Assembly (NCBI GenBank): GCA_005882525.1 | Contig: VBGO01000008.1 | Location: 1-42,305, forward strand | DNA from: Chloroflexota bacterium | GTDB lineage: Bacteria > Chloroflexota > Dormibacteria > CF-121 | Direction of reading: 5' to 3' | DNA length: 42,305 nucleotides | Shown here: one piece after another, positions 10,667-39,476 of the stretch | How the letters are laid out: every line of letters starts with the position of its first letter | Numbering within the stretch: position 1 is the stretch's first letter | Notes under the pieces: model-generated | The model's database searches: none | Told to the model about the DNA's origin: nothing | Seen by the model: the letters and a program-made list of their open reading frames with translations, nothing else | Translations under genes and position numbers: made by a program

Positions 10667-10685
10667 GTTCCGCGACGACGGACGC

Positions 10686-12704: not shown

Positions 12705-12716
12705 GGGAGGATATCC

Positions 12717-13193: not shown

Positions 13194-13238
13194 CCGGCTG
13201 ATCGGAAGACACGTCACCTTCCGTGGCCTGGGGTCAGC

Positions 13239-16049: not shown

Positions 16050-16064
16050 CGGCAGGGAGCACGC

Positions 16065-17636: not shown

Positions 17637-17698
17637 CTCGGAAACTAAGACGCGGATGGGAATCGAAAAGTTCCCGTTCCTCAGGCTAAGCTTGAAAC

Positions 17699-18013: not shown

Positions 18014-18022
18014 CGGCCGCGG

Positions 18023-19958: not shown

Positions 19959-21584
19959 TTATTCCGAAGGCGCCGCGGCGGCCGGCGCTTTCAGCGCCCG
20001 CTCCCGGAGGACCTTTTTGTCGAACTTCCCGACGCTCGTCTTGGGGATCTCATCGATGAAGCGCACCTCATCGGGGAGCCACCACTTCGCCACCAGCGGC
20101 CGGAGGAAGTCGAGGATCTCGTCCTGCGATACCGAGCCTTTGAACTCCGGTTTGGCAACCGCGTAGGCGACCGGGCGTTCCTGCCATTTCGGATGTGGCA
20201 CCCCGATCACGGCGGCTTCGAGCACCTTCGGGTGGCCCATGATGGCGGACTCGAGCTCCACGGAGGAGATCCACTCGCCGCCAGACTTCACCAGGTCTTT
20301 GGTTCGGTCCACGATCGCGATGTAGCCCTCCGGGTCGACGTTCGCCACATCACCGGTCCGCAGCCAGCCGTCGGCGGTGAAGCGATCGGCATCGACGCCG
20401 CGGAAATAGCTACCAGTGACCCAGGGGCCGCGAACCTGGATTTCGCCCACGCTCTTGCCATCCCATGCCACCGACTCACCGGTCTCGACGTTGGCCAGCC
20501 GGAGCTCGATCCCGGCCAGCGGCATGCCCTGCTTGAGCCGGATGGCCTTGCGATCCTGATCCGTCAACTGGCTCTTGATCGTCGCGCACGCCGCCACGGG
20601 CGAGGTCTCGGTCATCCCCCATCCCTGGTTGGTGTCGATACCGTGACCGGTCAGCCCGTCGTACAGTCCCGCTGACAGCGCCGAGCCACCGACGAACATG
20701 CGAAGGCCGTCCAGGTTGGTTCCCGTTTTGTCCAGGTACTGGAGCAGCGGGATCCATACGCTGGGCACCCCGGCGCTGAAGGTGACACCCTCCTCCCGGA
20801 TGAGCTCGGTGAGGCTGACCGGGTCGAGGAACCGGTCGGCAAACACCTGCTTGGCGCCCAGCATGGTGGCCGCGTAGGGGAGACCCCAGGCGTTGGCGTG
20901 GAACATCGGCACGATGGGGAGGATGCTGTCGGCCTCCTGGAGACCAATGCCGCCGCCGATGGCGATGCCGAGCGAGTGGAGCACGGAGGAGCGGTGGCTG
21001 TAGACGACGCCCTTCGGCTTCCCGGTCGTCCCCGACGTGTAGCACATGGCGGCGGCATCCCGCTCGTCCAGTTCCGGCCACGGGTAGACGGACGGACGAC
21101 CGGCGAGCAGCTCCTCGTAGGAGCTGAGCGGCGTGAGCTCCCCGTTGGGCGATGGGCCATCGGTCATGACGACGAACTGCTTCACCCCTTTGAGCTGTTT
21201 CGCGATTCGCTGGAGGGCCGGCAGCAGGGAAGCGTCAGCGAAGATGACTTTGTCGTCAGCGTCGTTGATGACGTAGGCAAGGTGCTCGGGGAAGAGCCGT
21301 GGGTTCAACGTGTGCAGCACCGCGCCGGAGCAAGGTGCTGCAAAGTACAGCTCGAGGTGCCGGTGGTTGTTCCAGGCGAGCGTGCCGACCCGCTCGCCTT
21401 CGCCCACCCCGAGGTCCTTGAGCGCGTGCGCCAGCTGCGCCACGCGCCGGCCAAAATCGGCATAGGTGTACCGGTGCCGGCCGGCTTCCCGCTTGGTGAC
21501 GATCTCCTTGGACGGGAACAGCGTGGTCGAACGCCAGAGGAAGTGCTGGAGCGTCAGCGGGAAGTCGGGCATCGTGCTGCGCAT
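19959..21584 (-). CDS. Long/medium-chain fatty-acid--CoA ligase (AMP-dependent synthetase)
   Basis: AMP-binding motifs [33 protein letters not shown] and [17 protein letters not shown] lies 11 nt upstream of ATG 21584 (the alternative TTG 21593 is too close to the SD). Confidence 0.9.
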
Positions 21585-21746
21585 CGCGGTCAACGCCTCC
21601 TATGACCGGGTCTGGCCGGCCGGGACATTTGGCGGTCGCAATACTACCCATGATATGCTTCGTCGTGGGCGGAGGCAGCCCGGTCATGGCACGCCCCGAA
21701 ATCGCAGCGGACCGGGGATAACTTTGCGAAGGAGCTAGCGGCAGAC

Positions 21747-21950
21747 GTGGCGCAGAACGGTACGATCAAGCGACTCGTGATGGATCGAGGATTCGGATTC
21801 TTGAGCGGCGAAGACGGCAAGGAGTATTTCTTTCACCGGTCGTCTGTCGAGGGCTCGTTCGAGGGGCTGCAGGAGGGGCAGAAGGTCAGCTTCGACGTCG
21901 AAGCATCAGCACCCAAAGGGCCGCGCGCCTCTCGGGTGCGCGTCGCCTAA
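21747..21950 (+). CDS. csp: Cold-shock domain protein (CspA family)
   Basis: RNP1-like DRGFGFL and RNP2-like EYFFH motifs. GTG start with GAAGGAG 12 nt upstream. A ~150-nt 5' leader is present, as is common for csp genes. Confidence 0.9.
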   Translation: MAQNGTIKRLVMDRGFGFLSGEDGKEYFFHRSSVEGSFEGLQEGQKVSFDVEASAPKGPRASRVRVA

Positions 21951-21975
21951 AAGACTCACAACCTAGAATCCAAAG

Positions 21976-22003
21976 GGCCCCGGGCAACGCCGAGGCCTTT
22001 TTT
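21976..22003. terminator. Candidate bidirectional intrinsic terminator between convergent csp and arsM
   Basis: GGCCCCGG-GCAACG-CCGAGGCC (8-bp stem, one mismatch) followed by TTTTTT on the plus strand. It lies between the stops at 21950 and 22009. Confidence 0.45.
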
Positions 22004-22008
22004 CTTCT

Positions 22009-22779
22009 CTAGGGTTTGGTCGCCCGGATGTAGGCGCTGGCAATCTTTCCGGCGCCATCGGGCAGTCCCGCCTCTTGCGGTCCGAAGGTGTTGGTGACCT
22101 CGATGGCAACCGTCTCGAAGCCGGCATCGCGAACGGCCGCCTGGTAGGCATCAACCGGGATGGTGCCGGCCACACAGCCGGCCCACGCATCGAGGGACGA
22201 TTTGACCGATGGGGCCAGCGTCTCCACCTCGACCATGTCCGACACGGCCAGCCGTCCACCCGGCTTGAGAACGCGGAACGCCTCCTTCAACACCGCCGCT
22301 TTGTCGGCGGCGAGGTTGATCACACAGTTGGAGATGACGACGTCGACGGCCGCGTCGGACAGGGGAACCGCCTCGATCGTGCCCTTGAGGAAAGTGGCAT
22401 TCTCGACGCCCGCTCGCGCCTTGTTCTCGTTGGCCAGGGCGAGCATCTCGTCGGTCATGTCCACGCCGTAGGCGTGCCCGCCAGGGGAAACGCGCCGAGC
22501 CGACAGCAGGACGTCCAGGCCGGCGCCGCTGCCCAGGTCGAGCACGACCTCGCCGGGATGCAGCTGGGCCAGCATCGTCGGGTTGCCACAGCCGAGGCTC
22601 GCGCCCAGCGAGAGGCCAAGATCTGAAATCTCCGCGCTGGAATACTCCTTCTCACCGATCGGACCACTGATCGCATCGGTCCCACCGCAGCAGCTCGAAT
22701 CGCAACAGTTCCCGCCATCCCGCATCTTGATCGCGGTCTGCGCATAATGCGATCGAACCGAGTTCTGAATGGTCTCCAT
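22009..22779 (-). CDS. arsM: Arsenite S-adenosylmethionine methyltransferase
   Basis: N-terminal Cys cluster GGNCCDSSCCGG. SAM motif VLDLGSGAGLDV. Conserved VISNCVINL (third As-binding Cys) and LKPGGRLAVSD. Confidence 0.9.
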   Translation of the reverse strand: METIQNSVRSHYAQTAIKMRDGGNCCDSSCCGGTDAISGPIGEKEYSSAEISDLGLSLGASLGCGNPTMLAQLHPGEVVLDLGSGAGLDVLLSARRVSPGGHAYGVDMTDEMLALANENKARAGVENATFLKGTIEAVPLSDAAVDVVISNCVINLAADKAAVLKEAFRVLKPGGRLAVSDMVEVETLAPSVKSSLDAWAGCVAGTIPVDAYQAAVRDAGFETVAIEVTNTFGPQEAGLPDGAGKIASAYIRATKP

Positions 22780-22800
22780 CACTGACCCCTGTTAGGATAG

Positions 22801-23648: not shown

Positions 23649-25205
23649 GTGGACGCCCTCCACGAGTGGCAGCAGCCTGCCCTGCCGAGCCTCGACCGCG
23701 ATCCCGACCGTGAGTTCAAAGCCCGGGTTCGGACGCACTACGATCGGCTCGCCGCTGGCCGCGATCGCTGGTACCGCCGCAACCGGAGCTACCACGACTA
23801 CCTGGAACGTGCCCTACGGAGGCTCGTTCCACCCGGGCGGTCGGTCCTGGAACTCGGCTGTGGGACCGGAAACCTGCTCAAGGCGCTCCAGCCGGCACGC
23901 GGGGTGGGGATCGACCTCAGTCCCGCCATGGTCGACCTCTCGCGCCAGAAGTATCCGGAGATGCGCTTCGAGGTCGGTGACGCGGAGGCCGTCGAGGGCG
24001 ATGAACCGTTCGATGTGATCGTCGCCTCCGACCTGATCGGCGAGCTCCTCGATATTGCCGCCATGCTCGACCGGCTGCACGCCATCAGCGCCGCCGAGAC
24101 CCGCCTGATCCTCACCTTCCACAACCCTGCGCTGGAGGGGCTGCTTCGCGTGGCGCAGCGCGCCGGCCTCACCATGCCGCCCGCCCGCCAGAACTGGATC
24201 GGCCCGAACGACGTCACCGGCCTTCTCGAGCTCTCCGACTTCACGGTGGAGCAGGTGCACAGCGGGCTGCTGCTCCCGGCCCTGCTTCCGGCGCTCAACC
24301 GGATTGCGGACGCGGTCCCGGCCCGCGCACCGCTCATCGGTTATTTGAACGCGGTCACGATCGTGGTGGCGCGGCCGCGGCGGCCGCGGCCGCAACTCTG
24401 GCCGCTCAGCTGCAGCGTGATCGTCCCCTGCCGCAACGAGGTCGGCAACATCGAAGCCGCCGTCAGCCGGATGCCATCGATGGGATCGCACACCGAGATC
24501 GTGTTCGTCGATGGTGCCTCTTCCGACGGGACCGGAGAGCGAATCGAGGAAATGCGTCGCCGGTTCGCCGGCAGGAAGGACATCCGCCTGATCCATCAAG
24601 TTCCAGGACCCCGGCCTGTGGTTTTGGCGTCGGTCGCGCCTGACGCCCCGGTGGCGATGCTTAAGCTCGGCAAGGGCGATGCAGTCCGCAAGGGATTCGA
24701 GGCGGCTCGCGGCGACGTGCTGATGATCCTGGACGCCGACCTGACGGTCCCGCCCGAGGACTTGCCCCGGTTCTTCAATGCCATCGCCAGCGGCAAGGCC
24801 GAGTTCGTCAATGGCAGCCGCCTCCTGTACCCCATGGAGGAACGAGCGATGAAGTTCATTAACTACCTCGGTAACAAGCTCTTCAGCAGCCTCTTTACCT
24901 GGCTGTTGGGGCAAGCGGTTCGCGACACGCTCTGCGGCACCAAGGCCGTCCGTCGGGAAGCCTACCGGCGCATTGCCGATGGGCGAGCCTATTTCGGCGA
25001 GTTCGACCCCTTCGGAGACTTCGACCTTCTATTCGGTGCCGCCCGCCTGGGCCTGCGCATCGTGGATGTGCCGGTCCGCTACCGGCGGCGGCGGAACGGG
25101 GTCACCAAGGTGCGCGTCGTCCGTCATGGCCTGCTGCTCATGGCAATGTCGCTCGTCGCCTTCCGCAAATTCAAACTCAGTAAGTGGATGCATACGTGGC
25201 GATGA
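23649..25205 (+). CDS. Fusion protein: class I SAM-dependent methyltransferase (N-terminal) plus family-2 glycosyltransferase (C-terminal)
   Basis: N-terminal VLELGCGTGNLL...FDVIVASDL (SAM motifs I-II). C-terminal CSVIVPCRNE...IVFVDGASSDGT...ILDADL...GTKAVRREAY (GT2 DxD and polyprenyl-phosphate-sugar-synthase-like pattern). GTG start. Confidence 0.85.
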   Translation: MDALHEWQQPALPSLDRDPDREFKARVRTHYDRLAAGRDRWYRRNRSYHDYLERALRRLVPPGRSVLELGCGTGNLLKALQPARGVGIDLSPAMVDLSRQKYPEMRFEVGDAEAVEGDEPFDVIVASDLIGELLDIAAMLDRLHAISAAETRLILTFHNPALEGLLRVAQRAGLTMPPARQNWIGPNDVTGLLELSDFTVEQVHSGLLLPALLPALNRIADAVPARAPLIGYLNAVTIVVARPRRPRPQLWPLSCSVIVPCRNEVGNIEAAVSRMPSMGSHTEIVFVDGASSDGTGERIEEMRRRFAGRKDIRLIHQVPGPRPVVLASVAPDAPVAMLKLGKGDAVRKGFEAARGDVLMILDADLTVPPEDLPRFFNAIASGKAEFVNGSRLLYPMEERAMKFINYLGNKLFSSLFTWLLGQAVRDTLCGTKAVRREAYRRIADGRAYFGEFDPFGDFDLLFGAARLGLRIVDVPVRYRRRRNGVTKVRVVRHGLLLMAMSLVAFRKFKLSKWMHTWR

Positions 25206-26092
25206 CCGAGGGGAGCCACGGCTGCCCCGTCTGTCGGGACGCCCGGCGGCAAGCCGTCGTCACCCAGAACGGGCTGGGAGTGGTTCGCTGCCTGCGTTGT
25301 GGCCAGCGCTATGTGTGGCCGATTCCGTCCGACGCGGACCTGGCCGCCATCTATGACCCCGCCTACTATCGCGGGGGGCACGGATCCGTCGGATTCAGCG
25401 ATTACGCCGCCTTGACGCCAGCCCGTCGCCAGATGTTCTCACGCCACCTGGATCGGATCGAACGGCTGCACGCAAAAGGTCGGGTGCTCGACGTGGGCTG
25501 CGCGACGGGCGACTTCCTGCTGGTGGCCGCGCGACGCGGTTGGGAGGCGCTCGGCGTCGATCCCTCGCCGGCGCGCGAGCAGGCGCAATCCGCGGGCCTG
25601 CGCATCGTCGGACGTACCATCGACGACGCCGACGTCGCGCCGCATAGCCTCGACCTGATCACATTCTGGGACGTCCTCGAGCATCTGCCGGACCCGGTCG
25701 CCAGCTTGCGTCGCGCTCAGGAGTTGTTGACCCCGGGTGGTCTGGTGGCCGCCACCGTCCCCAACGCCGGCACGGCCGTTGCCCGGCTGAGCGGGAGGCG
25801 CTGGTTCGGCTACAAGACGGCGGGCGAACATCTCCAGTTCTTCGACCCGGCCACCATCAGTCGGTGCTTTGAGGCGGCCGGCTTCCGCGTCGCGGTTCGC
25901 CGCCCGGTGGCCTGGAGCTGCACCATCGGATTCCTGATTGACCGTGCCGCGCTGTACCTCGGCGGCCCCGGCCGGATCGTCCACCGGGCGCTGAACGGTC
26001 GCCGGTTGACCAGGCTCGTCGTCGACGTCCCGCAGGTCAATCAGTTCGTCGCGGCTCGGCCGGTCTCGGTCATCGGCTCGCTGGCCGCATGA
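25202..26092 (+). CDS. Class I SAM-dependent methyltransferase with N-terminal CxxC...CxxC zinc ribbon
   Basis: CPVCRD...CLRCGQ ribbon. VLDVGCATGDFL (motif I), ITFWDVLEHLPDP, LTPGGLV. The ATG overlaps the upstream stop (ATGA at 25202-25205). Confidence 0.85.
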   Translation: MTEGSHGCPVCRDARRQAVVTQNGLGVVRCLRCGQRYVWPIPSDADLAAIYDPAYYRGGHGSVGFSDYAALTPARRQMFSRHLDRIERLHAKGRVLDVGCATGDFLLVAARRGWEALGVDPSPAREQAQSAGLRIVGRTIDDADVAPHSLDLITFWDVLEHLPDPVASLRRAQELLTPGGLVAATVPNAGTAVARLSGRRWFGYKTAGEHLQFFDPATISRCFEAAGFRVAVRRPVAWSCTIGFLIDRAALYLGGPGRIVHRALNGRRLTRLVVDVPQVNQFVAARPVSVIGSLAA

Positions 26093-27282
26093 GGTCCGTG
26101 GTGGTGGCGCTCCGCAGCCGGCAACGGCTGACGCTCGTCCTACTGATTGCGCTGGCGATCAACCAGATTCGGATCGCGATGGAAGGTTGGGGTAGCTTCG
26201 TCCTTCGACATCCGGGCTTCGCCGACTTTGGGAACTATTACCTCTACGCACTGGTCGGCCTGCACCAGGGATGGAGCCGGTTGTACGACCTGGCCGCGCA
26301 GCAGCAGGAATGGCTGCGCCTCGGCGGATCGGACGTCATTCCCTGGTTTCCGATTATTTATCCGCCACCGCTGGCGTGGCTGGTCGTGCCCTTCACCCTG
26401 CTGCCCATGCCGCTGGCCTTCGCCTGCTGGGCAGCCCTGCTCTTCGGACTCGTCCTGTTGACCTGCCGGCTCGTCGCGCTCGAGCAGACACGGCTGGCCC
26501 GCTGGACGCCGGTCGTTGCGGTGCTGGCGGTCTTCCCCGTGCTCTATGCGCTCATCCTTGGCCAGGTGCTCATCCTCGAGCTGGCCGCCCTTGCCGCCGC
26601 CTGGTGGCTGGTCTCGAAAGGCCGCGAGATTCCAGCCGGCATCCTGCTGACCGTGCTGGTCTTCAAGCCGCAGGTCGCCATCCTCGTCCCGGTGGCGCTG
26701 CTGCTGATCGGTCGTTGGCGGACGGTCGCCGTCTGGGTCGCCGGATCGGCGCTGATCGCTGCGGTCGCCCTGATGACCACCGGGGTCGATGGCCTGCGCG
26801 ACTACGCGTCTCGTCTTTCCGGTGCGGCGGCCACGGCGCCAGAATTCCTGGTCCCCACCCAGTTCACGCTCGGCGGCTTCATCGGCCACGGGATGGTCAG
26901 GCTCGCCGTCGCCGGGCTGCTGATCGCTGTGACGGCGGCCGTGGCCTACCGGCACCGGCATGAGGCTCCGGCGATACCGATCGCGTGCGCTCTGATCGGC
27001 TCGATGCTGGTGACGCCGTATCTTCACTCGCAGGACCTGGCCACTCTCCTGCTCGCCGGAGGAATCGCCGTGCATGGCCGGCTTGATCGGTGGCAGTACG
27101 GTTTGCTGTCCGCCGGCTACCTGCTGCTGCTGGCGATTTCCTACTGGGGTTTTGGTGGTTGGGGTTCGATTCTGGGCGCGGCGCTGCTCGTCAGCGAGAC
27201 GGTCTGGCTACTGGCTGCGCTGCGGGTTAGAACCCCGGGCGACGCGGTGCGGCGGACGGAAACCCTGGGCCAGGTTGCCTAA
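26089..27282 (+). CDS. GT-C fold polytopic glycosyltransferase, GT87/DUF2029-like
   Basis: About 10 TM helices. It carries the conserved early loop motif typical of DUF2029 mannosyltransferase-like proteins (DFGNYYLYA...FPIIYPPPLAWLVVPF). ATGA overlap with the upstream gene (26089-26092). Confidence 0.8.
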   Translation: MRSVVVALRSRQRLTLVLLIALAINQIRIAMEGWGSFVLRHPGFADFGNYYLYALVGLHQGWSRLYDLAAQQQEWLRLGGSDVIPWFPIIYPPPLAWLVVPFTLLPMPLAFACWAALLFGLVLLTCRLVALEQTRLARWTPVVAVLAVFPVLYALILGQVLILELAALAAAWWLVSKGREIPAGILLTVLVFKPQVAILVPVALLLIGRWRTVAVWVAGSALIAAVALMTTGVDGLRDYASRLSGAAATAPEFLVPTQFTLGGFIGHGMVRLAVAGLLIAVTAAVAYRHRHEAPAIPIACALIGSMLVTPYLHSQDLATLLLAGGIAVHGRLDRWQYGLLSAGYLLLLAISYWGFGGWGSILGAALLVSETVWLLAALRVRTPGDAVRRTETLGQVA

Positions 27283-27858
27283 GGCAGCCAGATCTCGGAC
27301 GCGGACTGCACGTCGGTGATCCACCAGCGTCCATCGATGTCGACCAGGGTGTAGTGGTAATAGCCGAGGAACCGGTGGGTCGTCCGCCGGCCGAGGCCGA
27401 CCCCTTTCTCCGCATCCGGTACCAAGCGGTAGATCCACTCTTCCTTGGTCGTCACGTTGACGTTCTGCGGGCTGGCTTCGAGGCCATAAGCGGAAAGCTC
27501 AACCTTGCCGATCTGCAAGTAGGCGGTGTAAGAAACATCCAGCACCTCGCAGGTGATGTCCAGGCGAGCTGCGGGGAACGACTCGAAGTCCCCGGAGAGG
27601 TCGTGCGCGACTTGGGACAACATTGGCTCCAGGTACACCTCGCGCAGCACGTCGGCATCACGGTTGTTGTACGCCTGCTGATTGAGCTTGATCGACCGCA
27701 GGACGGTGTCCTTGATGGCCGAAACGTTGAACGCCGTCTCCCGCTGCACGCCTAGAGAGTAGCAAAGGGGCGAACGGCATCCCGCGGGTTTCTGAGGGGC
27801 GACGGTCTGGTAAACCTTTGTAAACCTCGTCGCCCCCTGGCCGGTCGGCCGGGCCGTA

Positions 27859-27869
<11 letters not shown>
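27279..27869 (-). CDS. Hypothetical protein (possible NTF2-like/DUF4101-like fold, unverified)
   Basis: 196-aa ORF. The TTG start at 27869 is preceded by a strong GGAAGGAGGG SD 4-5 nt upstream. The C-terminus YHYTLVDIDGRWWITDV resembles NTF2-like domains. Its stop overlaps the convergent GT87 stop. Confidence 0.6.
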
Positions 27870-29993
<2,124 letters not shown>

Positions 29994-29997
<4 letters not shown>

Positions 29998-32423
29998 GCG
30001 AGCAGGGCACGAGCCGGCGGATCCTGGTTGCCGACGACGATCCCGAACGCCTCAAGGCGCTGGTCGAGCGACTCCAACGCGAAGGCTTTGCCGTCCTCTC
30101 CGCCCAGGACGGGCTCGAGGCGCTGGATCGTGCCCGTGAGGAATTGCCGGACGCCATCATTCTCAACCTGCTGCTCCGCCGGATCGATGGGCTTCGCGTC
30201 TGCGAAATCCTGAAGAGCAACCCGGCAACCACGAACATTCCGGTGCTACTGATGGCCGGCGTCCACGTCGATGCGGACGAGGGCAAGCGGGCGCTGGCCG
30301 CCGGGGCGGACCGCTTCTTGAGCGATCTCAGCTCGCTGTCCACCGGATCCGGCCGCGAGCTGGGCGCGGACCAGGACCTGATCCAGGCGGTGCGTATGCT
30401 GCTGGGGGCGGAGCCGGAACTGGAACAGCGGCCGGTCCTGCTGGCCATCGACGATGATCCCGACAACCGCGCGTTTCTCACCAAGGCGGTGTCGAAACAG
30501 GGCTTCGAGGTCGTCACGGCACCCAACGCCACGCAAGCTCGCCGGCAGCTCGCCGGCCGGCGCCCGGCGCTGATCTTCCTCGACGTGCAGATGCCGGAAG
30601 AGAGCGGGCTGAGCCTGCTGCCCCAGATGCTTCGAGACTTCCCCGAGTCGGTGGTCGTCATGATGACGGCCTACGGCTCCGAACAGGTGGCGGCGGAGGC
30701 GCTGCGCGGCGGCGCGGACGATTACATCGCCAAGCCGATCGACCTGCACCGCCTGCGAGAACTACTCGAACGCAACCTGGAGAAGCAGCGGCTGCGTGCC
30801 GAGCGGCAGAGCCTGGTCGCGCGGCTGAAGGACTCGAATCGCTACCTGATGCGCCAGCACGCGGCGCTGCGGCAGGCCGATGAGGAGATCCTCCAGGTCA
30901 ACCGTCAGCTCGAGCAGTCCAGTCGCTACAAATCGGAATTCCTGGCGAACATGTCGCACGAGCTGCGCACCCCGCTCAACGCCATTCTGGGCTTCAGCGA
31001 GATCCTGCTGGACCTCACCATGAACCTCACCGCCGGCGAGCGCACCGAATTCCTCCGCAACATCCACAGCAGCGGACAGCACCTGCTCGGCCTGATCAAC
31101 GACATTCTCGACCTGGCGAAGATCGAGGCGGGGAAGATGGATCTCCACGCCGAAGAGATGCCGGTCACCCAGGCGCTCCAGGAAGTCACCGCCATCCTGG
31201 ATCCGATGGCCCGCCAGCAGGGCCTCCAGCTGAGAACGGTCGGCGCGGCGGAGGCGGGCGCCATCAAAGCCGACCGGAGCAAGTTCAAGCAGGTCCTCTA
31301 CAACCTGCTCTCCAACGCGGTCAAGTTCACGCCGGCGCCGGGCAACATCACCGTGACGGTCAGAGATTCCCCCGAGCAGTTGACGGTATCCGTCGAAGAC
31401 ACCGGGATCGGGATGAAGCCCGAGGATCTGCCGAAGCTGTTCCGCGAGTTCGAGCAGATCGATGGCTCCTATACCCGCCGCTACCAGGGCACCGGACTGG
31501 GGCTGGCCCTCTGCCGCCGCTTCGTCGAGATGCACGGCGGCCGGATCTGGGCCGAGAGCCAGTTCGGTAAAGGCTCGATTTTCACCTTCACCATTCCGCG
31601 GGAACCCCGGCTCGCGCTCGAGGCCCCCGTCGAGGAGGCGGCGCAGACCGCCGAAAGCATGGAGCTGCCGCTGGTCCTCGTGGTCGAAGATGACCCGGCC
31701 AGCAGCCAGCGGATGACGGCGGAGATCCAGGGGGTCGGCTTTCGGGTGGCGCATGCCCTCGATGGCAACGAGGCGGTGCGCAAGGCGATGGAGATCCTCC
31801 CCGACCTGGTGGTGATGGAAACCGTGCTCCCCGTCAAAGACGGCTGGCAGGTCCTGCAGGAGCTGCGCGCCCGGGCCGCGACGGCCGACGTGCCGGTGCT
31901 GGTCTGCTCCGTGACCCAGAACCAGCAGCTGATGGACGAGTACGGCGTGGTCGGCTACGTGGCCAAACCGTGGGCGACCAAGACGATGCAGGACGAGCTC
32001 CGGCGGGTCGGGCAGGGCATCAAGCGGCGGCGCGACCGAATCCGGGTGCTGCTGGTGCATCGGGAGCGCCGAGCGCTGGCGCCGCTGGCGGCCGCCCTGG
32101 TGGAAGAGGGCTTCGAGGTCTTCCGGGCGCCCGGGCTGCAGGAGGCCCTGGAAAAGGCCCGCGCGGCCGCCCCCGACGTGGTGGTGCTGGCCCCCGCCGA
32201 GCCGGAATGGGTGCTGGGCCTGCGGGGGCTCCCCGGCCAGCCCGCCATGCTGGCCCTGGGTGAAGTTTCACCGAGGGTGCCAGCGACGGCTTGGAGCGCC
32301 GTTATACCCTCTGGCCTCTCCCAGCCAGATGCCGTATTGCGCGCCATCAAGGGCCTGGACATCGTTCAGAGGCGAAGGAGGACAGGGCGTGACCGCCGGC
32401 AAGGTTTTGATCGTCGAAGATAA
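29994..32423 (+). CDS. Hybrid histidine kinase B: pseudo-REC, REC, HisKA, HATPase_c, REC(Glu), degenerate REC
   Basis: REC1 residues 8-115 have Asn58 (AIILNLLL) at the acceptor site and lack the conserved T and K. REC2 is canonical (LIFLD197VQMP, MMTAYG, YIAKP). H-box FLANMSH322ELRTPLNAILGFSE. HATPase boxes YNLLSNAVKFT, DTGIGM, GTGLGLALC. REC3 has Glu609 (LVVMETVLP). The REC4-like segment has Ala733 (VVVLAPAEP) and no acidic pair. ATGA overlap with gene A. Confidence 0.9.
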
Positions 32424-32778
32424 CCCGGTCAATCTCCGCTTGGCCCAGTTCCTGCTCGAGAAGAAAGGTTTCAGCGTGCGCAAAGCCGGCAGCGGCGCGG
32501 AGTGCCTGGCGGAAATGACCCGTGAGCTGCCCGACATCGTCTTGATGGACATCCAGCTACCGGGGGAGGACGGGCTGGCGGTTACCCGCAAGATCCGCTC
32601 CGATGCCCGCATGGCGGGGGTCGTCGTCGTCGCGCTGACCGCCCATGCCATGGCCGGCGACCGGGAGAAGATCCTGGGCGCCGGCTGCGACGGCTACATC
32701 GCCAAACCGGTCGATCCGCAAGGCCTTCCCGGGGAAGTGGCCCGCTACCTGCAACAGGGACGGCGGAAGGCCGCCTGA
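32389..32778 (+). CDS. Single-domain response regulator (CheY-like receiver) C
   Basis: KVLIVEDNPVN, DIVLMDIQLPGEDG, VVALTAHA, GYIAKP; all phospho-chemistry residues are present. The GTG 32389 has GAAGGAGG 7 nt upstream. It overlaps the 3' end of gene B by 35 nt. Confidence 0.85.
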   Translation: MTAGKVLIVEDNPVNLRLAQFLLEKKGFSVRKAGSGAECLAEMTRELPDIVLMDIQLPGEDGLAVTRKIRSDARMAGVVVVALTAHAMAGDREKILGAGCDGYIAKPVDPQGLPGEVARYLQQGRRKAA

Positions 32779-32780
32779 TG
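32743..32780 (+). repeat. Junction repeat copy 1 (3' end of gene C, SD, TGATG stop/start)
   Basis: CGCTACCTGCAACAGGGACGGCGGAAGGCCGCCTGATG. It matches 33111-33145 apart from two substitutions and one CGG codon. Confidence 0.9.
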
Positions 32781-33143
32781 AGCGAACAGCCACAGAAGTC
32801 CAGCCGGGTCGGGGAATCAGCACCCAAAGCCGGCCACCCCTACGCCCAGATCCTTCAGCTCAACCAGGAACTGGTCCAGAATCTCCAGGGCCTGGTCGAT
32901 GAGCACGAAACGCGCAAGAAGGAGCTCGAAGAACTGCGCTTTGGGCATGATCAGGCACGGGCCGAGATCGCGCGGCTCCAGGAGGAGCTGCGCCACGCCA
33001 ACCAGCGGGACGCCGAACGCCATGAGCAGCTTCGCCAGTTGGAGGCGGAACATGTCGACCAGCTCGGCGCGATGAGTGCCCATCTGGATGCCATGCGAGC
33101 CGCCATCGAACGATACCTGCAACAGGGTCGGAAGGCCGCCTGA
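32778..33143 (+). CDS. Small coiled-coil protein D, a truncated paralogue of the N-terminus of gene E
   Basis: 121 aa with heptad-rich sequence. YAQILQLNQELVQNLQGL matches E FADILQQNQEFIAHLQAL. RDAERHEQLRQLEAEH matches E RDEERRSQLRQLEQER. It ends in RYLQQGRKAA, like gene C. It has TGATG coupling at both ends. Confidence 0.7.
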   Translation: MSEQPQKSSRVGESAPKAGHPYAQILQLNQELVQNLQGLVDEHETRKKELEELRFGHDQARAEIARLQEELRHANQRDAERHEQLRQLEAEHVDQLGAMSAHLDAMRAAIERYLQQGRKAA

Positions 33144-33145
33144 TG
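33111..33145 (+). repeat. Junction repeat copy 2 (3' end of gene D, SD, TGATG stop/start)
   Basis: CGATACCTGCAACAGGGTCGGAAGGCCGCCTGATG; see copy 1 at 32743-32780. Confidence 0.9.
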
Positions 33146-35587
33146 GCAGACACGCCCAAGGCGAAATCCTTCGCCGACATCCTGCAGCAAAATCAGGAGT
33201 TCATCGCGCATCTGCAGGCGTTGCAGGATGACGCGGGGGCGCAGCTCGCCGAGAAGGCCAAAGAGCTCGGTCTGGTCAAGCGTGAGCTCGAGGCCAAGCA
33301 GCAAGAGCTCGACGAATTGCAGAACGCCCAGTTGCAGTGGGCGATGGACCGCCAGGCGCTCCTCACCCAGCATGATGCGCTGAAGCAGGGGCACGTGGAC
33401 CTGCAGCAGGCCCACGATCGAGGCCAGGTGGAGCTCGGTCGGCTCAAGGATGACGTCACTCGGGCCAAGACGCGTGATGAGGAGCGGCGAAGCCAGCTCC
33501 GGCAGCTCGAACAGGAGCGCATGCAGCTGGCACAGAAATACGAGGCCGACCAGAAGAAGATTCGGGCCGACCTCAAGACCGCGCAGGACGACCTCAACGA
33601 GTTGCAGTCATCCCAGCTTCAGTGGGCGGTCGACCGCGAGACCTTACTGAAGGATCGGGACACCGCCGTTGCCAGGCAGGCGCAGCTCGAGCAGGAGTGG
33701 CAGAAGGCACGCGCCGAGCTCACCCAGGACAAGGCGCGGCTGACCGATCTCACCGCCCAGTTGCAGCAGCAGCTGAAAGCCGTCCAGGCCGAGATCGACC
33801 CGCTCAAGGCCGCCCGGGACAAATGGCAGGCGGAACGGCTGCGCCTGATCGCCGACGTCGCCCGGCTGGAGCAGGGGTCGCAGGCCTCGGAAGCGCAGTT
33901 CAAAGCCGACCGCAAGCTGCTCCAGGGTCAGCTCGAAGAAGCCCGCAAGAAGGGTGCCGACCTCGACAAAGCCGAGGCCGAGTTTCAGCGCCTCAGCGAC
34001 GAGCGCTCGGCGCTGCTCACCAAGGTCAAGGCGCTGGAGAAGGACTGGCAGAGTCGGGAGGCGTCCTTCGCCGAGGAAAAGTCCACTCTCAAGAAGCAGG
34101 CACAGGATGCGATCGCCAGGCTGGCGGTGATTCAACAGGATTACGAAAAGCTCAAGGCCCTGCATGCCGATCTCGCGGGGGAGACCGGCCGCAAGGCGGA
34201 GGAGTGGACCGTCCGCGAACAGCGGCTCACCTCGGAAAAAAACCAGCTCAAGGTCGACCTGGAGCGGATCCAGGCCCAGCTCTCCGAAATGAGCACGCAG
34301 ACCAATGAGCTGCACCGGCAGCGCGCGGGGGAAGCCAAGGAGCTCGAGCAGGCCTGGCAGCGGGAGAAGGCGTCCCTCAAGTTGCAGCTCGACGAGGCGC
34401 GCAAGGCGGCCGGCAGCGGGCCGCCCACCAGCCAGGTCCTGGCCCGCTACGAAGCGGAGAAACGGGCGATGCAGGCCCAACTCGACGGTCTCAAGGTGGA
34501 GCTCACTGCCACCGGAAAGAATAAGGATGCGGCCCCGGCGTTGAGCCAGGCCAAGCGGGACTTCGAGGCCAAATTCCGAGTCATCTACGACCAGAGCCAC
34601 GACCTCAACTCGCCGCTCAACGCGATCATCGGGTTCTCCGAGATCCTGCTCGACGAGAAGGCGAACAAGACTACGCCCGAAGAGCGGCGGGAGTTCGTCG
34701 CCCACATCAACGAAAGCGGCAAGCGCCTGGTCGAGCACATCCGCGAGCTGATCGAGTTCGCCAAGCAGGAAGCCGGCATCCAGGAACGCCCCGTCCAGAT
34801 GATGCCGCCGGTCGGTTCCGGCACCAAGGCCCCGGTCATCCTGGTCGCCGACAACGACCCGGCGGTCAAGGAGCGCATCGAGCCCTTCCTCAGCCACGCC
34901 GGCTACGAGGTCGTGATCGCCGCCAGCGCCCAGGAAGCGCTTCGGAAGGCGGTGCAGCTCCAGCCGCTCGCCGTCCTGATCGACACGCAGCTGCCGCCCA
35001 ACGGCGGGAGCGGCCTGGTCTACGACCTGCGCCGCGAGTCGAAGACCAAGGACATCCCGATCGTGCTGACCTCCAAGATCAATAAGGAATCGCTGCCCTT
35101 CGATATCGGGCAGGCGGACTTCCTCACCAAGCCGATCGATCGCCAGCAGCTCCTCCAGATGATGGTGAAGTTCGACCTGCTGGCCGACGGCAAGCGCGGA
35201 AAGAAGACGCCGTCATCGATCCTGATCGTGGACGACGACCCGCAGAACATCCGGTTGGTCAAGGCCATGCTCAAGCCCTTCAACATGGAAATCATGGTCG
35301 CCGACGGCGGGAAGGCGGGCCTGGAGCTCGCCATGAAAAAGAAGCCCGACATGATTATCCTCGACCTGATGATGCCCGACGTCGACGGCTTCGAGGTGGT
35401 CTCCAAGCTCCGCGAGGACCCGGCCTCGAGCCAGATCCCCATCCTTATCTATACGGCGAAAAACATCACGAGCGAAGACCGAGAGCGCTTGCAGGGGAAC
35501 ATCCAGACAATCATCCAGAAGGGCGACTTCGGCAAAGACCGCTTCCTCGAGATGATCAACAACCTTCAAACCAGCCAGGCTGCTTAG
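33143..35587 (+). CDS. Coiled-coil / DHp-only histidine phosphotransfer / REC-REC protein E
   Basis: Residues 1-470 are continuous heptad-type coiled coil (Q/E/K/L/A rich). Residues ~470-545 form a HisKA-like DHp with H-box YDQSH486DLNSPLNAIIGFSEILLD. Only ~18 residues follow before REC1 (VILVADND, VLID614TQLP, VLTSK, LTKP), then REC2 (ILIVDDDP, IILD741LMMPDVDG, IYTAK, IQKGD). No N/G1/F/G2 ATP-binding boxes occur anywhere. Confidence 0.85.
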   Translation: MADTPKAKSFADILQQNQEFIAHLQALQDDAGAQLAEKAKELGLVKRELEAKQQELDELQNAQLQWAMDRQALLTQHDALKQGHVDLQQAHDRGQVELGRLKDDVTRAKTRDEERRSQLRQLEQERMQLAQKYEADQKKIRADLKTAQDDLNELQSSQLQWAVDRETLLKDRDTAVARQAQLEQEWQKARAELTQDKARLTDLTAQLQQQLKAVQAEIDPLKAARDKWQAERLRLIADVARLEQGSQASEAQFKADRKLLQGQLEEARKKGADLDKAEAEFQRLSDERSALLTKVKALEKDWQSREASFAEEKSTLKKQAQDAIARLAVIQQDYEKLKALHADLAGETGRKAEEWTVREQRLTSEKNQLKVDLERIQAQLSEMSTQTNELHRQRAGEAKELEQAWQREKASLKLQLDEARKAAGSGPPTSQVLARYEAEKRAMQAQLDGLKVELTATGKNKDAAPALSQAKRDFEAKFRVIYDQSHDLNSPLNAIIGFSEILLDEKANKTTPEERREFVAHINESGKRLVEHIRELIEFAKQEAGIQERPVQMMPPVGSGTKAPVILVADNDPAVKERIEPFLSHAGYEVVIAASAQEALRKAVQLQPLAVLIDTQLPPNGGSGLVYDLRRESKTKDIPIVLTSKINKESLPFDIGQADFLTKPIDRQQLLQMMVKFDLLADGKRGKKTPSSILIVDDDPQNIRLVKAMLKPFNMEIMVADGGKAGLELAMKKKPDMIILDLMMPDVDGFEVVSKLREDPASSQIPILIYTAKNITSEDRERLQGNIQTIIQKGDFGKDRFLEMINNLQTSQAA

Positions 35588-35602: not shown

Positions 35603-37867
35603 ATGACTGCCCTCGACCGCCAGTTCGTCCAGCTTCGGTTTGCGGCGCTCCTGATTCCGCTCGGCCTCCTCCTCTGGCTCCATTCGGCGTCGGTCCCGGT
35701 CGCCATCCTGCTGGGTGGCATGCTGGCCGCCTATAACGGGGTGGCGGCGCTGGCGATCCGACGGAATGCGGTCCCCCGTTTCGGCAAGCCGATGGCGGTG
35801 CTCCTGCTCGTCCTGGATCACCTGGTCGTCACCGGCTGGATCCTGCTCTTCGCGTCGCCTTCCTCCAGCCTCCCGTATCTTCTCTATGCCCTGGTCGCGG
35901 CCGAAGCGGTGTTCCGCTTCGAACTCTGGGGCGGCATCGGGACCAGCCTCTTCTTCACGAGCGGCATCATCCTCTTCCAGACCAGCGACCTCGGGCTCGC
36001 CATCTCGGTGCGCGACGCGATCCTGCGGGCCGTCCCCACCGTCGCCGTGATCACCGGCCTGGGCGCCGCGGTGCGGGCCCTGAATACCGAGATCCGCGGC
36101 ACCCGGCGCCGGCTCGCCCAGACGGAGCAGCTCCGCAACGTGCTCGGCGAGCTGGTGGGTCAGCTGGATGTATCGCGCATGCTCTACACCGTCATCCGCT
36201 GCGGCATGGAGCTCCTCCAGATGGACTCCGGGGCCATCGTGTTGCTCGACGAGGAGCGCGGGGTGTTTACGTTGGGGGCGGCGGTTCGCCTCGAGGCGGC
36301 CATCGAAGGCGTGACCATCTCAGCCGGCGACGGGATCGTCGGGCGGGTGGTCCGGGAGCGCCGTTTCGTGATGCTCGCCGAGCCGCCCCTGTTCGATCTG
36401 GCCGCGCTCAATGCGGCCGGCTATCGCCGAGTCTTCGGGACCCCCGTCCTGCTGGAAGGCAAGGTCTCGGGCGTGCTCCACCTGCAGACGCGCGAAGACC
36501 AGCGCCGGCTGACCCGATGGGAAGAGGAGGCGCTCGAGGTGCTGGCCCAGCAGCTGGCCGTCGCGCTCCGCAACGTCCACCTCTTCGAGGAGACCGAAAA
36601 GCGCGCCCGCCGGCTGGAGCTGCTCAACCGATCGATCGACCAGATGAACCAGAAACTCTTCGAGCCGGAGCTGCTCGACATCATCGCCACGGCGCTCACC
36701 GGCAACCTCGATTTTGCCGCCGCTCAGGTCTGGCTGCTGGAGGCAAGCGACGGCGCGCTCTGGCGCCGGGCCAGCCATCACGTCACCCGCAACGCGCCGC
36801 CGGTGCCCGGCCGGGTGGAACGCGGCATGGGCGAGATCGGCCAGGTGGCCGAGCTGCGGGTCCCGATCGTCACCAACGACCCGGCCAACCACCGCCAGCT
36901 CGCGCTCAACCCCTGGATGTCGGAAGAAGGGATCCAGGCGTTCGCCGGATTTCCGATGGTCGTCGGCGACCAGCTGCTGGGCGTGCTCGCCATCTATCAC
37001 CGGCGCGCCCTGGACCGGAACACCATCGAGCTGCTGACGCTCTTCGCGCAGCATGCCGCCACGGCCATCCAGGAGGCGCACCTCTTCCATCTCGCCACGG
37101 AGCAGACGGCGCGGCTGGGCGCGGTCAACGCCGAGCTGCAACGCGCGAACCAGGTGAAGGCGGAGTTCCTCGCCAACATGAGCCACGAGTTGCGCACCCC
37201 GCTGAACTCGATCCTGGGGTTTTCCCAACTCCTGCTCGAGGGGGATGGGGGCGTGCTCAGCCAGGACCAGCGTCAGGACGTCGACATCATCGCCCAGAAC
37301 GGCCAGCACCTGCTCGCGCTGATCAACGACCTGCTCGACATTTCCAAGCTCGAGGCGGGTAAGGCCCAGCTGCATCGCGGCGAGGTCGACGTGGAGCCAC
37401 TGATTTCGGAGTGTGTGGAGAGCGTCCGCTCGCTGACCAAGCCGAAGAAGCTCGAGCTGACCGCCAGCGTATCGCCCGAGGTGGGGCGCGTCTTCGCCGA
37501 CGGGCCCAAGCTCAAGCAGGTACTGCTCAACCTGCTGGGCAACGCCATCAAGTTCACCGAGTCCGGCAGCGTGCGGGTGACGGCCGAACGCCAGGGAGCC
37601 GAGTTGCTTATCAGCGTCCGCGACACCGGCATCGGGGTGCCGCCGGACGATGCGGAGCGGATCTTCGAGAGCTTCCAGCAGGGTCAAAGCGGCATCAGCG
37701 GCAAGTATCAGGGCACCGGGCTGGGGCTGGCGATCTCCCGCCGGCTGGTGGAGATGCACGGGGGACGCATCTGGGTGAAGAGCCCGCCGGGTCAGGGCAG
37801 CACCTTCACCTTCACCATCCCGCAGCGGGCGCTGCCCGACGCGATCGATCTCTCGAGCGCGGCCTGA
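35603..37867 (+). CDS. Sensor histidine kinase F: multi-TM sensor, GAF, GAF, HisKA, HATPase_c
   Basis: About five N-terminal TM helices. GAF-like ends VSGVLHLQTRED...AVALRNVHLFEE and LLGVLAIYHRR...AATAIQEAHLF. H-box FLANMSHELRTPLNSILGFSQ. Boxes LNLLGNAIKFT, DTGIGV, GTGLGLAIS. GAGGG SD in the 15-nt gap after gene E. Confidence 0.9.
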   Translation: MTALDRQFVQLRFAALLIPLGLLLWLHSASVPVAILLGGMLAAYNGVAALAIRRNAVPRFGKPMAVLLLVLDHLVVTGWILLFASPSSSLPYLLYALVAAEAVFRFELWGGIGTSLFFTSGIILFQTSDLGLAISVRDAILRAVPTVAVITGLGAAVRALNTEIRGTRRRLAQTEQLRNVLGELVGQLDVSRMLYTVIRCGMELLQMDSGAIVLLDEERGVFTLGAAVRLEAAIEGVTISAGDGIVGRVVRERRFVMLAEPPLFDLAALNAAGYRRVFGTPVLLEGKVSGVLHLQTREDQRRLTRWEEEALEVLAQQLAVALRNVHLFEETEKRARRLELLNRSIDQMNQKLFEPELLDIIATALTGNLDFAAAQVWLLEASDGALWRRASHHVTRNAPPVPGRVERGMGEIGQVAELRVPIVTNDPANHRQLALNPWMSEEGIQAFAGFPMVVGDQLLGVLAIYHRRALDRNTIELLTLFAQHAATAIQEAHLFHLATEQTARLGAVNAELQRANQVKAEFLANMSHELRTPLNSILGFSQLLLEGDGGVLSQDQRQDVDIIAQNGQHLLALINDLLDISKLEAGKAQLHRGEVDVEPLISECVESVRSLTKPKKLELTASVSPEVGRVFADGPKLKQVLLNLLGNAIKFTESGSVRVTAERQGAELLISVRDTGIGVPPDDAERIFESFQQGQSGISGKYQGTGLGLAISRRLVEMHGGRIWVKSPPGQGSTFTFTIPQRALPDAIDLSSAA

Positions 37868-38609: not shown

Positions 38610-39476
38610 TCATCCCGCCAGCGCCATCGGTTCCTGACCGGCGGGGTAGTTCACCTTGGCGCCGAACTTGTAACCGACACCACGCTTGGTCTGGATGTAA
38701 ACGGGCTTGCTGGGATTCGGCTCGATCTTGCTGCGCAGGCGCGAGATATGCACCCGGAGCCCTTCTTCGTAGGCTTCTTCGTCGCCGGCCCATGCCTTGG
38801 CGAGCAGCGTCTCATTGGTCACGACCCTTCCGGCATTGCGAACCAGCAGGAAGAGCAGCTTGGACTCGGTGGGGGTCAGGCTGATCTGCTGGCCCTTGAC
38901 GCGAGCCCAGTGTTGGACGAAGTTGATCTGGAGGTCCTGGTCGATGACGACCTCAGGCTGCTCCACGCCGGCGGACTCGCCGTAGCGGCGCAGCACACGC
39001 TGCACCCGCGCCACCAGCTCTTCCTTCTCGAAGGGCTTGACGATGTAGTCCTCGGCATACATCTGCAGGCCCTCGACCTTGCTCTCGACGGCCGCGACCG
39101 CGCTGAGGATGACGATCGGGACGTCGAGGTGGCTCTTGATCCGGCGGCAGAGTTCGAAGCCGTCCATCTCCGGCATCATCAGGTCGACGACGACCAGGTG
39201 CGGGATGCCTTCGTGGAGCTTGCGCAGGGCCTCGGGGCCGCTCCCGGCCGTCATGACCTCGTAGCCGGCATGCTCGAGGATCCGCTTGAGGATCTCGCGC
39301 GCCATGGCATCGTCATCGACGATCAGAATCCGGTACCGGTTGACGATGTTAAACCCCTCTCTTCCGGCCGCCATCGCCCGTCGCGCTGCGGACCGGCCGC
39401 CATGGATTTGGACCTGCTGCTGCTGGCTCAGGTCCGACTGGAGAGCCGGCAAATATATATGGCCCTCGTCGTTCAT
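38610..39476 (-). CDS. OmpR/PhoB-family response regulator (REC plus winged helix) with ~45-aa N-terminal extension
   Basis: ILIVDDD, LVVVDLMMPEMDG, VILSAV, YIVKPF. The C-terminus LTPTESKLLFLLVRNAGRVVTNETL...LRVHISRLRSKIE...IQTKRGVGYKF is the OmpR wHTH. No cognate kinase is adjacent on its strand. Confidence 0.9.
   Translation of the reverse strand: MNDEGHIYLPALQSDLSQQQQVQIHGGRSAARRAMAAGREGFNIVNRYRILIVDDDAMAREILKRILEHAGYEVMTAGSGPEALRKLHEGIPHLVVVDLMMPEMDGFELCRRIKSHLDVPIVILSAVAAVESKVEGLQMYAEDYIVKPFEKEELVARVQRVLRRYGESAGVEQPEVVIDQDLQINFVQHWARVKGQQISLTPTESKLLFLLVRNAGRVVTNETLLAKAWAGDEEAYEEGLRVHISRLRSKIEPNPSKPVYIQTKRGVGYKFGAKVNYPAGQEPMALAG

Follow-up and report, generated by a model that had tools for sequence, protein, structure and literature searches.

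A HisKA domain without an ATPase domain, set between a long coiled coil and two receivers, in a conserved protein family of Dormibacterota

Proteins that resemble histidine kinases but do not charge themselves from ATP have been described in several forms. In Spo0B and ChpT, a dimeric DHp hairpin carries a phospho-His that is not charged by ATP and shuttles the phosphoryl group between receivers; both are small, stand-alone proteins with a degenerate CA-like alpha/beta domain and have Pfam families of their own. Spo0B is placed among KinA-E and Spo0F. ChpT is a precedent for a pseudo-histidine-kinase phosphotransferase (PMC9981736). In the RedCDEF 'four-component' system of Myxococcus xanthus, the histidine-kinase-like RedE does not autophosphorylate, takes phosphate from the dual-receiver protein RedD and dephosphorylates RedF, a receiver of a single domain (PMC2755868). 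A further class, recognized in P2CS and by Galperin et al. 2018 (PMC5847659), comprises 'incomplete' or non-enzymatic histidine-kinase-like proteins having a HisKA domain with a conserved His and no HATPase domain, which have been proposed to serve as phosphoacceptors, in phosphotransfer or as phosphatases; its published members are mainly archaeal and of the types PAS/GAF-HisKA or REC-(PAS)n-HisKA. Such natural proteins are listed under the name 'incomplete kinases' and still await characterization. Here we describe gene E, which encodes a protein of this descriptive class, in a 42,305-nucleotide (nt) stretch of a Chloroflexota bacterium (contig VBGO01000008.1, assembly GCA_005882525.1; hereafter the window), and we compare it with these systems.

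Gene E lies in an operon of six genes, A to F, and encodes a coiled coil-DHp-REC1-REC2 protein (Table 1). An earlier sequence-only reading of the window had given the open reading frame (ORF) exactly (positions 33143-35587, forward strand, 814 amino acids (aa)) and had numbered His486, Asp614 and Asp741 correctly. Pfam recognized a HisKA domain at residues 481-545 (E-value 1.4e-13) and two Response_reg domains (E-value 6e-36). An AlphaFold2 model of the head (residues 456-814), computed from a diverse family alignment with a mean predicted local distance difference test (pLDDT) score of 73, contained a helical hairpin (464-503 and 512-543), a disordered segment (544-561), REC1 and REC2, and nothing further. 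The DHp domain of E could be aligned to those of the kinases A, B and F at 37, 43 and 30% identity, respectively, which bears out the proposed paralogy. The H-box reads SHDLNSPLN in E and SHELRTPLN in A, B and F; all four share the motif PLNAIxGFSE, and His486 was aligned with the phospho-acceptor His of the three kinases.

An ATPase domain was sought in E by several methods. Pfam gave no match to HATPase_c families in E at E-values of 0.1 or below, compared with about 1e-30 to 1e-34 for each of A, B and F. D.G.G, G.G.G and N-box patterns were absent from E in a motif search, and when local hidden Markov models (HMMs) of CA, DHp, REC and GAF domains were run over all six frames, the CA matches were confined to A, B and F. 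A Foldseek search of the head against the PDB returned receiver proteins only (PleD, RR468 and DivK among them), and a PDB sequence search returned receivers plus one weak DHp match to the hybrid kinase 6qrj. Pfam found no Hpt domain in E. Pfam, the six-frame HMMs, the motif search, AlphaFold2 and Foldseek thus agree that ATP-lid motifs and an ATPase domain are lacking, and they rule out a cryptic ATPase fold. Because the ATP-binding domain is absent, E, which has a genuine HisKA-type DHp, cannot autophosphorylate from ATP alone, as the sequence-only reading had concluded. A disordered linker stands in place of the lost CA domain and is the least conserved part of the C-terminal half of E (23%). 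E would resemble Spo0B and ChpT in its predicted DHp hairpin and, putatively, in its role. However, it differs from them in that its HisKA domain is bona fide, nothing remains of a CA domain, and two receivers are fused to it along with a coiled coil of 450 residues; about 20 residues separate REC1 from the DHp, and neither a CA-like domain of the Spo0B/ChpT type nor their stand-alone state was found.

We considered whether E could have arisen artificially through misassembly or a frameshift, or might be a hybrid-kinase pseudogene in decay. We found nothing in favor of such an origin: the gap between DHp and REC1 is just 54 nt, none of the six frames contains a CA signal, and an identical E protein is encoded on a separate JGI soil contig (L001). 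The G+C content at third codon positions is 0.88, matching that of the neighboring genes. Above all, because the same architecture and operon are conserved in about 40 species of Dormibacterota, with the architecture also present in 31 paralogues, E is not an artefact, and the conservation across species likewise rules out a decaying pseudogene. The probability left to this explanation is negligible.

More than 120 protein clusters at 80-95% identity contain the same two Pfam domains; their lengths are 812-864 aa, with a few of 800-801 aa, and the named members are chiefly metagenome-assembled genomes labelled Dormibacteraeota or 'Chloroflexi' (Candidatus Dormiibacterota has the rank of a phylum). 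To collect genomic contexts, we scanned one genome per GTDB species with the pattern KP[IL][DN]RQ[QR][LFV][LV]Q, which was taken from the segment of REC1 alpha5 and the following linker, and obtained 78 loci. Domain maps of L002-L042 displayed the order A, B, C, D, E, F wherever the contig was long enough, usually with a convergent OmpR-type regulator next to it, and about 40 Dormibacterota species carry E in this six-gene operon. Loci L043-L074 hold paralogues of the same coiled coil-DHp-REC-REC architecture, which occur at one to three per genome besides E (two to four copies in all) and form about six independent groups. No kinase gene adjoining these paralogues was detected within up to 10 kb of flank on each side, the sole exceptions to kinase-free flanks being stray CA, GAF or REC matches in L048-L050, L055 and L069. 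Three divergent family members whose contigs were retrieved were also orphans, in unrelated contexts. The commonest orphan paralogue (group 4, 21 loci) is found in a housekeeping block, uvrB-uvrA-uvrC-[paralogue]-lgt-whiA-gap-pgk (for example, L070, positions 2783-18065), and its DHp is no longer recognized as HisKA by Pfam. In Actinobacteria and Firmicutes, rapZ and yvcK usually occupy this site.

Four loci outside Dormibacterota (L075-L078) were examined as candidates for the same architecture in other phyla and rejected: all carry a CA domain between DHp and REC and are ordinary DHp-CA-REC-REC hybrid kinases. An apparent 'DHp-REC' gene at the end of L075 has a marginal DHp match (E-value 0.001) about 450 nt from the REC. 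When the DHp-REC-REC part of E was compared with 1.84 billion representative proteins, 126 of the best 150 matches had a CA domain, and the 21 CA-less matches among them whose DHp and/or tandem REC closely resembled family members all belonged to this family or were fragments of it. On these sequence comparisons, the coiled coil-DHp-REC-REC family is confined to Dormibacterota. NCBIfam has no model for it, giving only receiver-level matches below threshold. The sequence-only reading had stated that the architecture was not known from described proteins. This holds for the specific family, for which we found no description or curated model and which appears undescribed so far; however, the general class of HisKA proteins without HATPase had already been recognized (PMC5847659; bioRxiv 10.64898/2026.02.27.708494). 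From the published members of that class, E is set apart by its N-terminal coiled coil, its two C-terminal receivers and its restriction to Dormibacterota.

Three observations point to the descent of E from a hybrid kinase by a clean deletion of the CA domain, with the sensor region swapped for a coiled coil. First, DHp-REC1-REC2 of E is colinear with DHp-[CA]-REC3-REC4 of gene B, REC1 corresponding to REC3 of B. Second, the residues just past DHp alpha2 of E (EAGIQERPVQMMP; IQERPVQMMP) align with the DHp-CA junction of B (EAGKMDLHAEEMP). Third, the closest relatives outside the family are DHp-CA-REC-REC hybrid kinases. Compared with the latter (B and L075-L078), E is without CA and has a coiled coil in the position of the sensor region.

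We then compared residues of the DHp across the family, using the 71 members encoded in the loci (40 of them orthologues of E, the other 31 paralogues) together with 16 diverged representatives. Identity in the head was about 45-100% among the 71 members and at least 80% among the E orthologues. The phospho-His was kept in 69 of the 71 (40/40 orthologues and 29/31 paralogues) and in all 16 diverged representatives; a lack of conservation of His486, which would have refuted the sequence-only reading, was therefore not seen. A hydroxyl residue (Ser or Thr) at His+4 and the residues Asn493, Gly497 and Phe498 were found in 71/71. His+1, by comparison, is Asp in all E orthologues (Asp487). Among the 31 orphan paralogues, Asp occurs at this position only in one of the three members of group 6, the others having Leu, Val, Gln, Arg, His, Ala, Ile or Thr. 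The H-box Pro (Pro491) is absent from all paralogues. One paralogue lineage (L060 and L062) has Tyr at the phospho-His site (PEHLYALKTDLN). DivL is known for the same substitution. The architecture, its conservation and the set of catalytic residues kept or lost were thus observed directly. Working on four HisKA kinases, Willett and Kirby found the requirement for the His+1 acid to be limited to kinase activity and that for the His+4 Thr/Asn to phosphatase activity (PMC3510030). Since the His+1 acid was lost in paralogues and the His and His+4 hydroxyl were kept, the kinase-specific constraint has relaxed along with the loss of CA, whereas the constraint for His-Asp chemistry persists. The Spo0B/ChpT-style phosphotransfer proposed in the sequence-only reading would agree with these gains and losses of constraint.

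The same residues bear on the possibility that E is a dedicated phosphatase or phosphate sink, in which REC2 and/or C would drain A, B and F and the DHp would speed the hydrolysis of phosphorylated receivers with no onward transfer. The isolated DHp domain of EnvZ keeps OmpR~P phosphatase activity, which counts for this explanation. So do the presence of the phosphatase-specific His+4 hydroxyl in 71/71 members and the dispensability of the kinase-specific His+1 acid (PMC3510030), the phosphatase activity proposed by Galperin et al. for HisKA-only proteins (PMC5847659) and the phosphatase action of RedE on RedF (PMC2755868). However, the residue at His+4 in E orthologues is Ser rather than the canonical Thr/Asn, the near-universal retention of His exceeds the usual need of a phosphatase, and the orphan paralogues have no obvious nearby substrate. 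We consider a purely phosphatase role unlikely, while noting that it is inseparable by sequence alone from a relay in which His486 would hand the phosphoryl group on.

The two receivers of E differ in their active sites. The acceptors Asp614 and Asp741, and the Thr and Lys of both receivers, are present as claimed in the sequence-only reading. Its further claim that both keep the acidic pair holds for REC2 (Asp697/Asp698) but not for REC1, where alignment to CheY, Spo0F and PhoB identified Asp570-Asn571, with Asn571 at the position of CheY Asp13, an Mg2+ ligand. Position 571 varies from member to member, Glu takes the place of Asp614 in 4 of the 16 representatives, and paralogue group 4 has Leu for Thr643. 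Because the spacing from Thr to Lys in REC1 is 20 residues instead of the usual 22, alpha4 is shortened, and it is almost absent from the AlphaFold2 model. In mean pairwise identity, the best-conserved parts of the protein are nevertheless REC1 alpha5 with the inter-receiver linker (61%) and REC1 beta1-alpha1 (59%), above REC2 (55%), DHp alpha1 (50%) and DHp alpha2 (37%). DHp alpha1 and REC1 beta1-alpha1, both among the most conserved segments, are docking surfaces in kinase-regulator complexes. Because its active site is degenerate and yet these segments are the most conserved, REC1 seems to serve as a structural adaptor where the CA domain once stood.

In REC2, by comparison, the Asp-Asp-Asp motif, Asp741, Thr/Ser and Lys are invariant in 71/71 members. 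The position of the aromatic switch (CheY Tyr106; three residues before the Lys) is occupied by Ile790 in E and by Ile or Val in 71/71, the residue after the Lys is Gly or Ala rather than Pro, and no effector domain follows. Judged by these residues, REC2 is a competent phospho-acceptor without the usual coupling to allosteric output. Brüderlin et al. tied such a profile to intermediary receivers (PMC9981736).

The operon, which is tightly packed, combines three kinases with a single-domain receiver, and its genes include no other His-phosphotransfer protein; this setting among several kinases and a single-domain receiver is similar to that of Spo0B. We tentatively favor the reading, at somewhat less than an even chance, that E acts as a node of His-Asp phosphoryl exchange, by relay and/or phosphatase action, with the coiled coil as its scaffold. 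E would be a soluble coiled-coil protein, probably a parallel dimer, whose head is the core of a hybrid kinase minus CA. Kinases A and F and the hybrid kinase B would phosphorylate a receiver, namely REC2 of E (Asp741) and/or C; the DHp of E would take the phosphoryl group back onto His486, which might then hand it on, for example to the convergent OmpR-type regulator, or hydrolysis might follow. REC1, in the position of the lost CA, would be mainly a structural adaptor, and the coiled coil together with the small paralogue D would oligomerize or position the node. That His486 is phosphorylated, by which donors and for which acceptors, in which direction the phosphoryl group flows, and whether E has a role in localization are all inferred. 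In favor of the node, the CA domain is truly absent while the DHp remains a well-scoring HisKA; the His, the His+4 hydroxyl and the phospho-residues of REC2 are kept while the His+1 acid is lost in paralogues; REC2 has the profile of an intermediary receiver; the docking surfaces on DHp alpha1 and REC1 are well conserved; the head is colinear with that of the hybrid kinase B; E is co-operonic with three kinases and a receiver in about 40 species; and ChpT and RedE are experimental precedents. The precedent nearest in logic is RedCDEF, E resembling a fusion of RedE-like and RedD-like proteins beside a RedF-like C and true kinases. However, the HATPase_c domain of RedE is still present and conserved while its HisKA is poor, and RedD and RedE are separate proteins without a coiled coil.

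Several points weigh against an exchange node. The Ser at His+4 of E (Ser490) is non-canonical, and the 100% conservation of Asp487, Ser490 and Pro491 among E orthologues carries little weight because the orthologues are close. The Mg2+ site of REC1 is weakened. Most family members lie far from any kinase, so the core function is independent of neighboring kinases, and the lineage with Tyr in place of His means that at least some members work without His phosphorylation.

The operon also raises the possibility that E is one half of a split kinase or a heterodimer partner, in which His486 would obtain its phosphoryl group in trans from a CA domain belonging to A, B or F, within a RetS/GacS-like DHp heterodimer or when kinase and substrate meet. 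The 30-43% identity of the DHp domains and the tight packing of the co-operonic genes are consistent with this, and split CheA kinases such as Hik36/Hik43 are known (PMC7656254). However, A, B and F each own a complete DHp with its His; because none of them has a counterpart of the 450-residue coiled coil, a heterodimer would leave it unpaired; most of the family, being orphans, have no adjacent kinase; and the loss of the His+1 acid in paralogues speaks against ATP-dependent His phosphorylation. The heterodimerization with neighboring kinases suggested in the sequence-only reading is thus disfavored, chiefly by the orphans with no kinase within 10 kb and by the lack of the coiled coil in A, B and F, and we regard it as quite improbable.

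The N-terminal half of E was predicted as a near-continuous helix (residues 10-457) in a full-length AlphaFold2 model, which was based on 25 close homologues (pLDDT 56) and was used for helix content alone, its packing being left uninterpreted. Hydrophobic power peaked at a period of 3.5 residues (z = 3.4; reached by 2 of 500 shuffles), and 76% of residues 1-470 are Ala, Leu, Gln, Glu, Lys, Asp or Arg. The coiled coil is variable in length and sequence among homologues (mean pairwise identity about 25%), and family proteins accordingly range from about 525 to 945 aa. Two motifs recur within it. The N-terminal motif PSFxxLLxxGQxFLxxLxAL (also written PSFADLLxxGQxFLxxLxAL) is shared by every paralogue group and by the N-terminus of D, and QLxWAxDRE is present in one or two copies per coiled coil; in the 16 diverged members, Arg165 is invariant and Trp161 nearly so. 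The lengths of E orthologues fall in discrete classes (814/815, 854, 864 and 945 aa), set by coiled-coil insertions, and an internal repeat of about 95 aa was found in the coiled coil of E (33284-33355 versus 33569-33640, 74% identical over 72 nt).

Because the coiled coil carries conserved motifs, specific binding partners are suggested, and these motifs are consistent with E being a non-catalytic scaffold or pseudokinase, in which the DHp would be a platform for dimerization and receiver docking, and phosphorylation of REC2 would switch partners or coiled-coil assembly. The DivL-like change from His to Tyr in one paralogue lineage, the orphan paralogues in housekeeping contexts such as uvrBAC-whiA-gap-pgk and the fact that the most conserved segment is REC1 alpha5 with its linker rather than the phospho-sites point the same way, as does the hybrid-kinase-like PsmA, which acts without a phosphorelay in a coiled-coil polarity complex (PMC12963549). 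However, 69/71 members keep the His and 71/71 the His+4 hydroxyl despite deep divergence, the His position of PsmA is freely variable, unlike that of the E family (PMC12963549), and the operon of E is composed of phosphotransfer proteins only. This explanation, too, seems to us an unlikely one.

DivL (Caulobacter) and PsmA (Streptomyces) resemble the E family in being derived from histidine kinases and having no autokinase activity; they act in polarity or cell-cycle complexes, DivL by binding DivK~P, and PsmA alongside coiled-coil proteins in the Streptomyces polarisome (PMC12963549). They represent the opposite case in their domains, CA being retained (degenerate in PsmA) and His absent, whereas in E the CA is absent and the His kept. 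A likeness to FrzS/AglZ, proposed in the sequence-only reading, stands as far as the combination of a receiver with a long coiled coil, the lack of enzymatic output and the inverted domain order are concerned. In FrzS and AglZ, a single (pseudo-)receiver at the N-terminus precedes the long coiled coil, and a DHp is lacking. The order in E is the inverse and a DHp is present, and no sequence relationship was detected beyond the receiver fold; the comparison is a loose analogy only. In summary of these comparisons, E does not belong with histidine kinases, Spo0B/ChpT, HPt proteins, DivL/PsmA or FrzS/AglZ, and fits the HisKA-without-HATPase class, a grouping by description rather than by homology.

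A broader and rather doubtful reading would make the family a coiled-coil scaffold peculiar to Dormibacterota and controlled by phosphorylation, similar to a cytoskeleton or serving as a hub of polarity. Its head would be a self-contained His-Asp switch charged by distant kinases, its abundance would be set by proteolysis through the C-terminal Ala-Ala, and E would be the copy connecting the three-kinase operon to the hub. The tail ends in AA in 53/63 and in AS in 7/63 coiled coil-DHp-REC-REC proteins, and in AA in 18/18 D-type proteins, compared with 21/632 (3.3%) non-signalling genes of the same loci. Such tails could be C-terminal degrons for ClpXP, like those of ssrA or CtrA. Within the operon, every protein except B (thus A, C, D, E and F) ends in Ala-Ala (29992-29997, 32770-32778, 33135-33143, 35579-35587 and 37859-37867). 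If the hub reading were true, a cell-organization system resembling DivL/DivK/PopZ would have been independently invented in an uncultured phylum.

The E family offers a clean, conserved case of an 'incomplete kinase', with two to four copies per genome, a nearly invariant His, decayed kinase-only residues and retained phosphatase or transfer residues. Because the operon supplies candidate donors and acceptors, its biochemistry is directly testable with recombinant proteins. If His486 relays phosphate, a DHp would be shown to work as a phosphotransferase with no CA or pseudo-CA domain, and a signalling and scaffolding module would be specific to a globally abundant, uncultured soil phylum; should E instead prove to be a scaffold without catalysis, the pseudokinase theme of DivL and PsmA would be broadened. 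Either outcome would refine two-component signalling within its known domain plasticity and would introduce no new principle.

Table 1. Features of gene E, its operon and two paralogues; positions refer to the window except where another locus is named
Feature	Positions	Strand	Basis or remark
Gene A, GAF-GAF-DHp-CA histidine kinase	27859..29997	+	Pfam; 4-nt overlap with B
Gene B, REC-REC-DHp-CA-REC-REC hybrid kinase	29994..32423	+	Pfam, receiver alignment
Gene C, stand-alone canonical receiver, GTG start behind GAAGGAGGA (Shine-Dalgarno)	32389..32778	+	Pfam Response_reg, E-value 4e-27
Gene D, 121-aa coiled-coil protein, short paralogue of the N-terminus of E	32778..33143	+	BLASTP
Gene E, coiled coil-DHp-REC1-REC2, 814 aa, no CA domain	33143..35587	+	ORF list, Pfam
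Conserved N-terminal motif of E, residues 8-30, KSFADILQQNQEFIAHLQALQ	33164..33232	+	Recurs in paralogue groups and D
Coiled-coil region of E, residues 10-457, short breaks near 345-350 and 425-428	33170..34513	+	AlphaFold2, heptad power
QLQWAMDRQ motif, copy 1, residues 63-71	33329..33355	+	Part of internal DNA repeat D3
QLQWAVDRE motif, copy 2, residues 158-166	33614..33640	+	Most paralogue groups
DHp (HisKA) helical hairpin, residues 464-543; His486 codon 34598-34600	34532..34771	+	Pfam, alignment to A/B/F, AlphaFold2
Disordered linker in place of lost CA domain, residues 544-564	34772..34834	+	pLDDT <50
REC1, residues 565-680: Asp570-Asn571-Asp572, Asp614 (codon 34982-34984), Thr643, Lys663-Pro664	34835..35182	+	Pfam, alignment, model
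REC1 alpha5 and inter-receiver linker, residues 665-692, most conserved segment of the family (61%)	35135..35218	+	Mean pairwise identity
REC2, residues 693-805: Asp697-Asp698-Asp699, Asp741 (codon 35363-35365), Thr771, Lys793, Ile790	35219..35557	+	Pfam positions 1-110/111
C-terminal Ala-Ala of E	35579..35584	+	Family tally
Gene F, membrane (about 4 transmembrane segments) GAF-GAF-DHp-CA histidine kinase, 15 nt downstream of E	35603..37867	+	Pfam, hydrophobic segments
Convergent OmpR-family response regulator, candidate terminal output	38610..39476	-	Pfam Response_reg and Trans_reg_C
Tyr-bearing paralogue, locus L060	about 8093-10054		
Tyr-bearing paralogue, locus L062	about 10016-		

Gene D was aligned by BLASTP to residues 4-127 of E (E-value 3e-9) and is present upstream of E in those orthologous loci that extend far enough (domain maps; 33 loci by tblastn). 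The C/D and D/E junctions are alike, both having a TGATG stop/start overlap that follows '...RYLQQGR(R)KAA-stop' (repeats at 32743-32763 and 33111-33131), and they indicate a local duplication and translational coupling.

Among the receiver-like domains of gene B, only REC2 has a canonical acceptor; the acceptor is Asn in REC1 and Glu in REC3, and REC4 has no motifs. Because three of the four are degenerate, B looks like a receiver-controlled kinase with pseudo-receivers. The convergent OmpR-type regulator was syntenic in 25 loci and is the most conserved gene of the neighborhood (median identity 96%); it has an N-terminal extension of about 45 residues ahead of its receiver.

In a promoter and terminator scan of the operon, counts were at or below the shuffle expectation. 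The annotated ORFs of the window are ordinary chromosomal genes, with no sign among them of a mobile-element origin. Upstream of the operon, a GT2-methyltransferase fusion and an adjacent methyltransferase (23649-27282) have no counterpart in orthologous loci, and a GT87 gene within the same interval has a counterpart in just one; the region looks like a strain-specific insertion of about 3.6 kb. The genes further upstream, an AMP ligase and a methyltransferase at 19959-22782, are conserved in the orthologous loci. A 196-aa ORF on the reverse strand (27279-27869), divergent from A and without a Pfam match, has a median identity of 91% in 32 orthologous loci.

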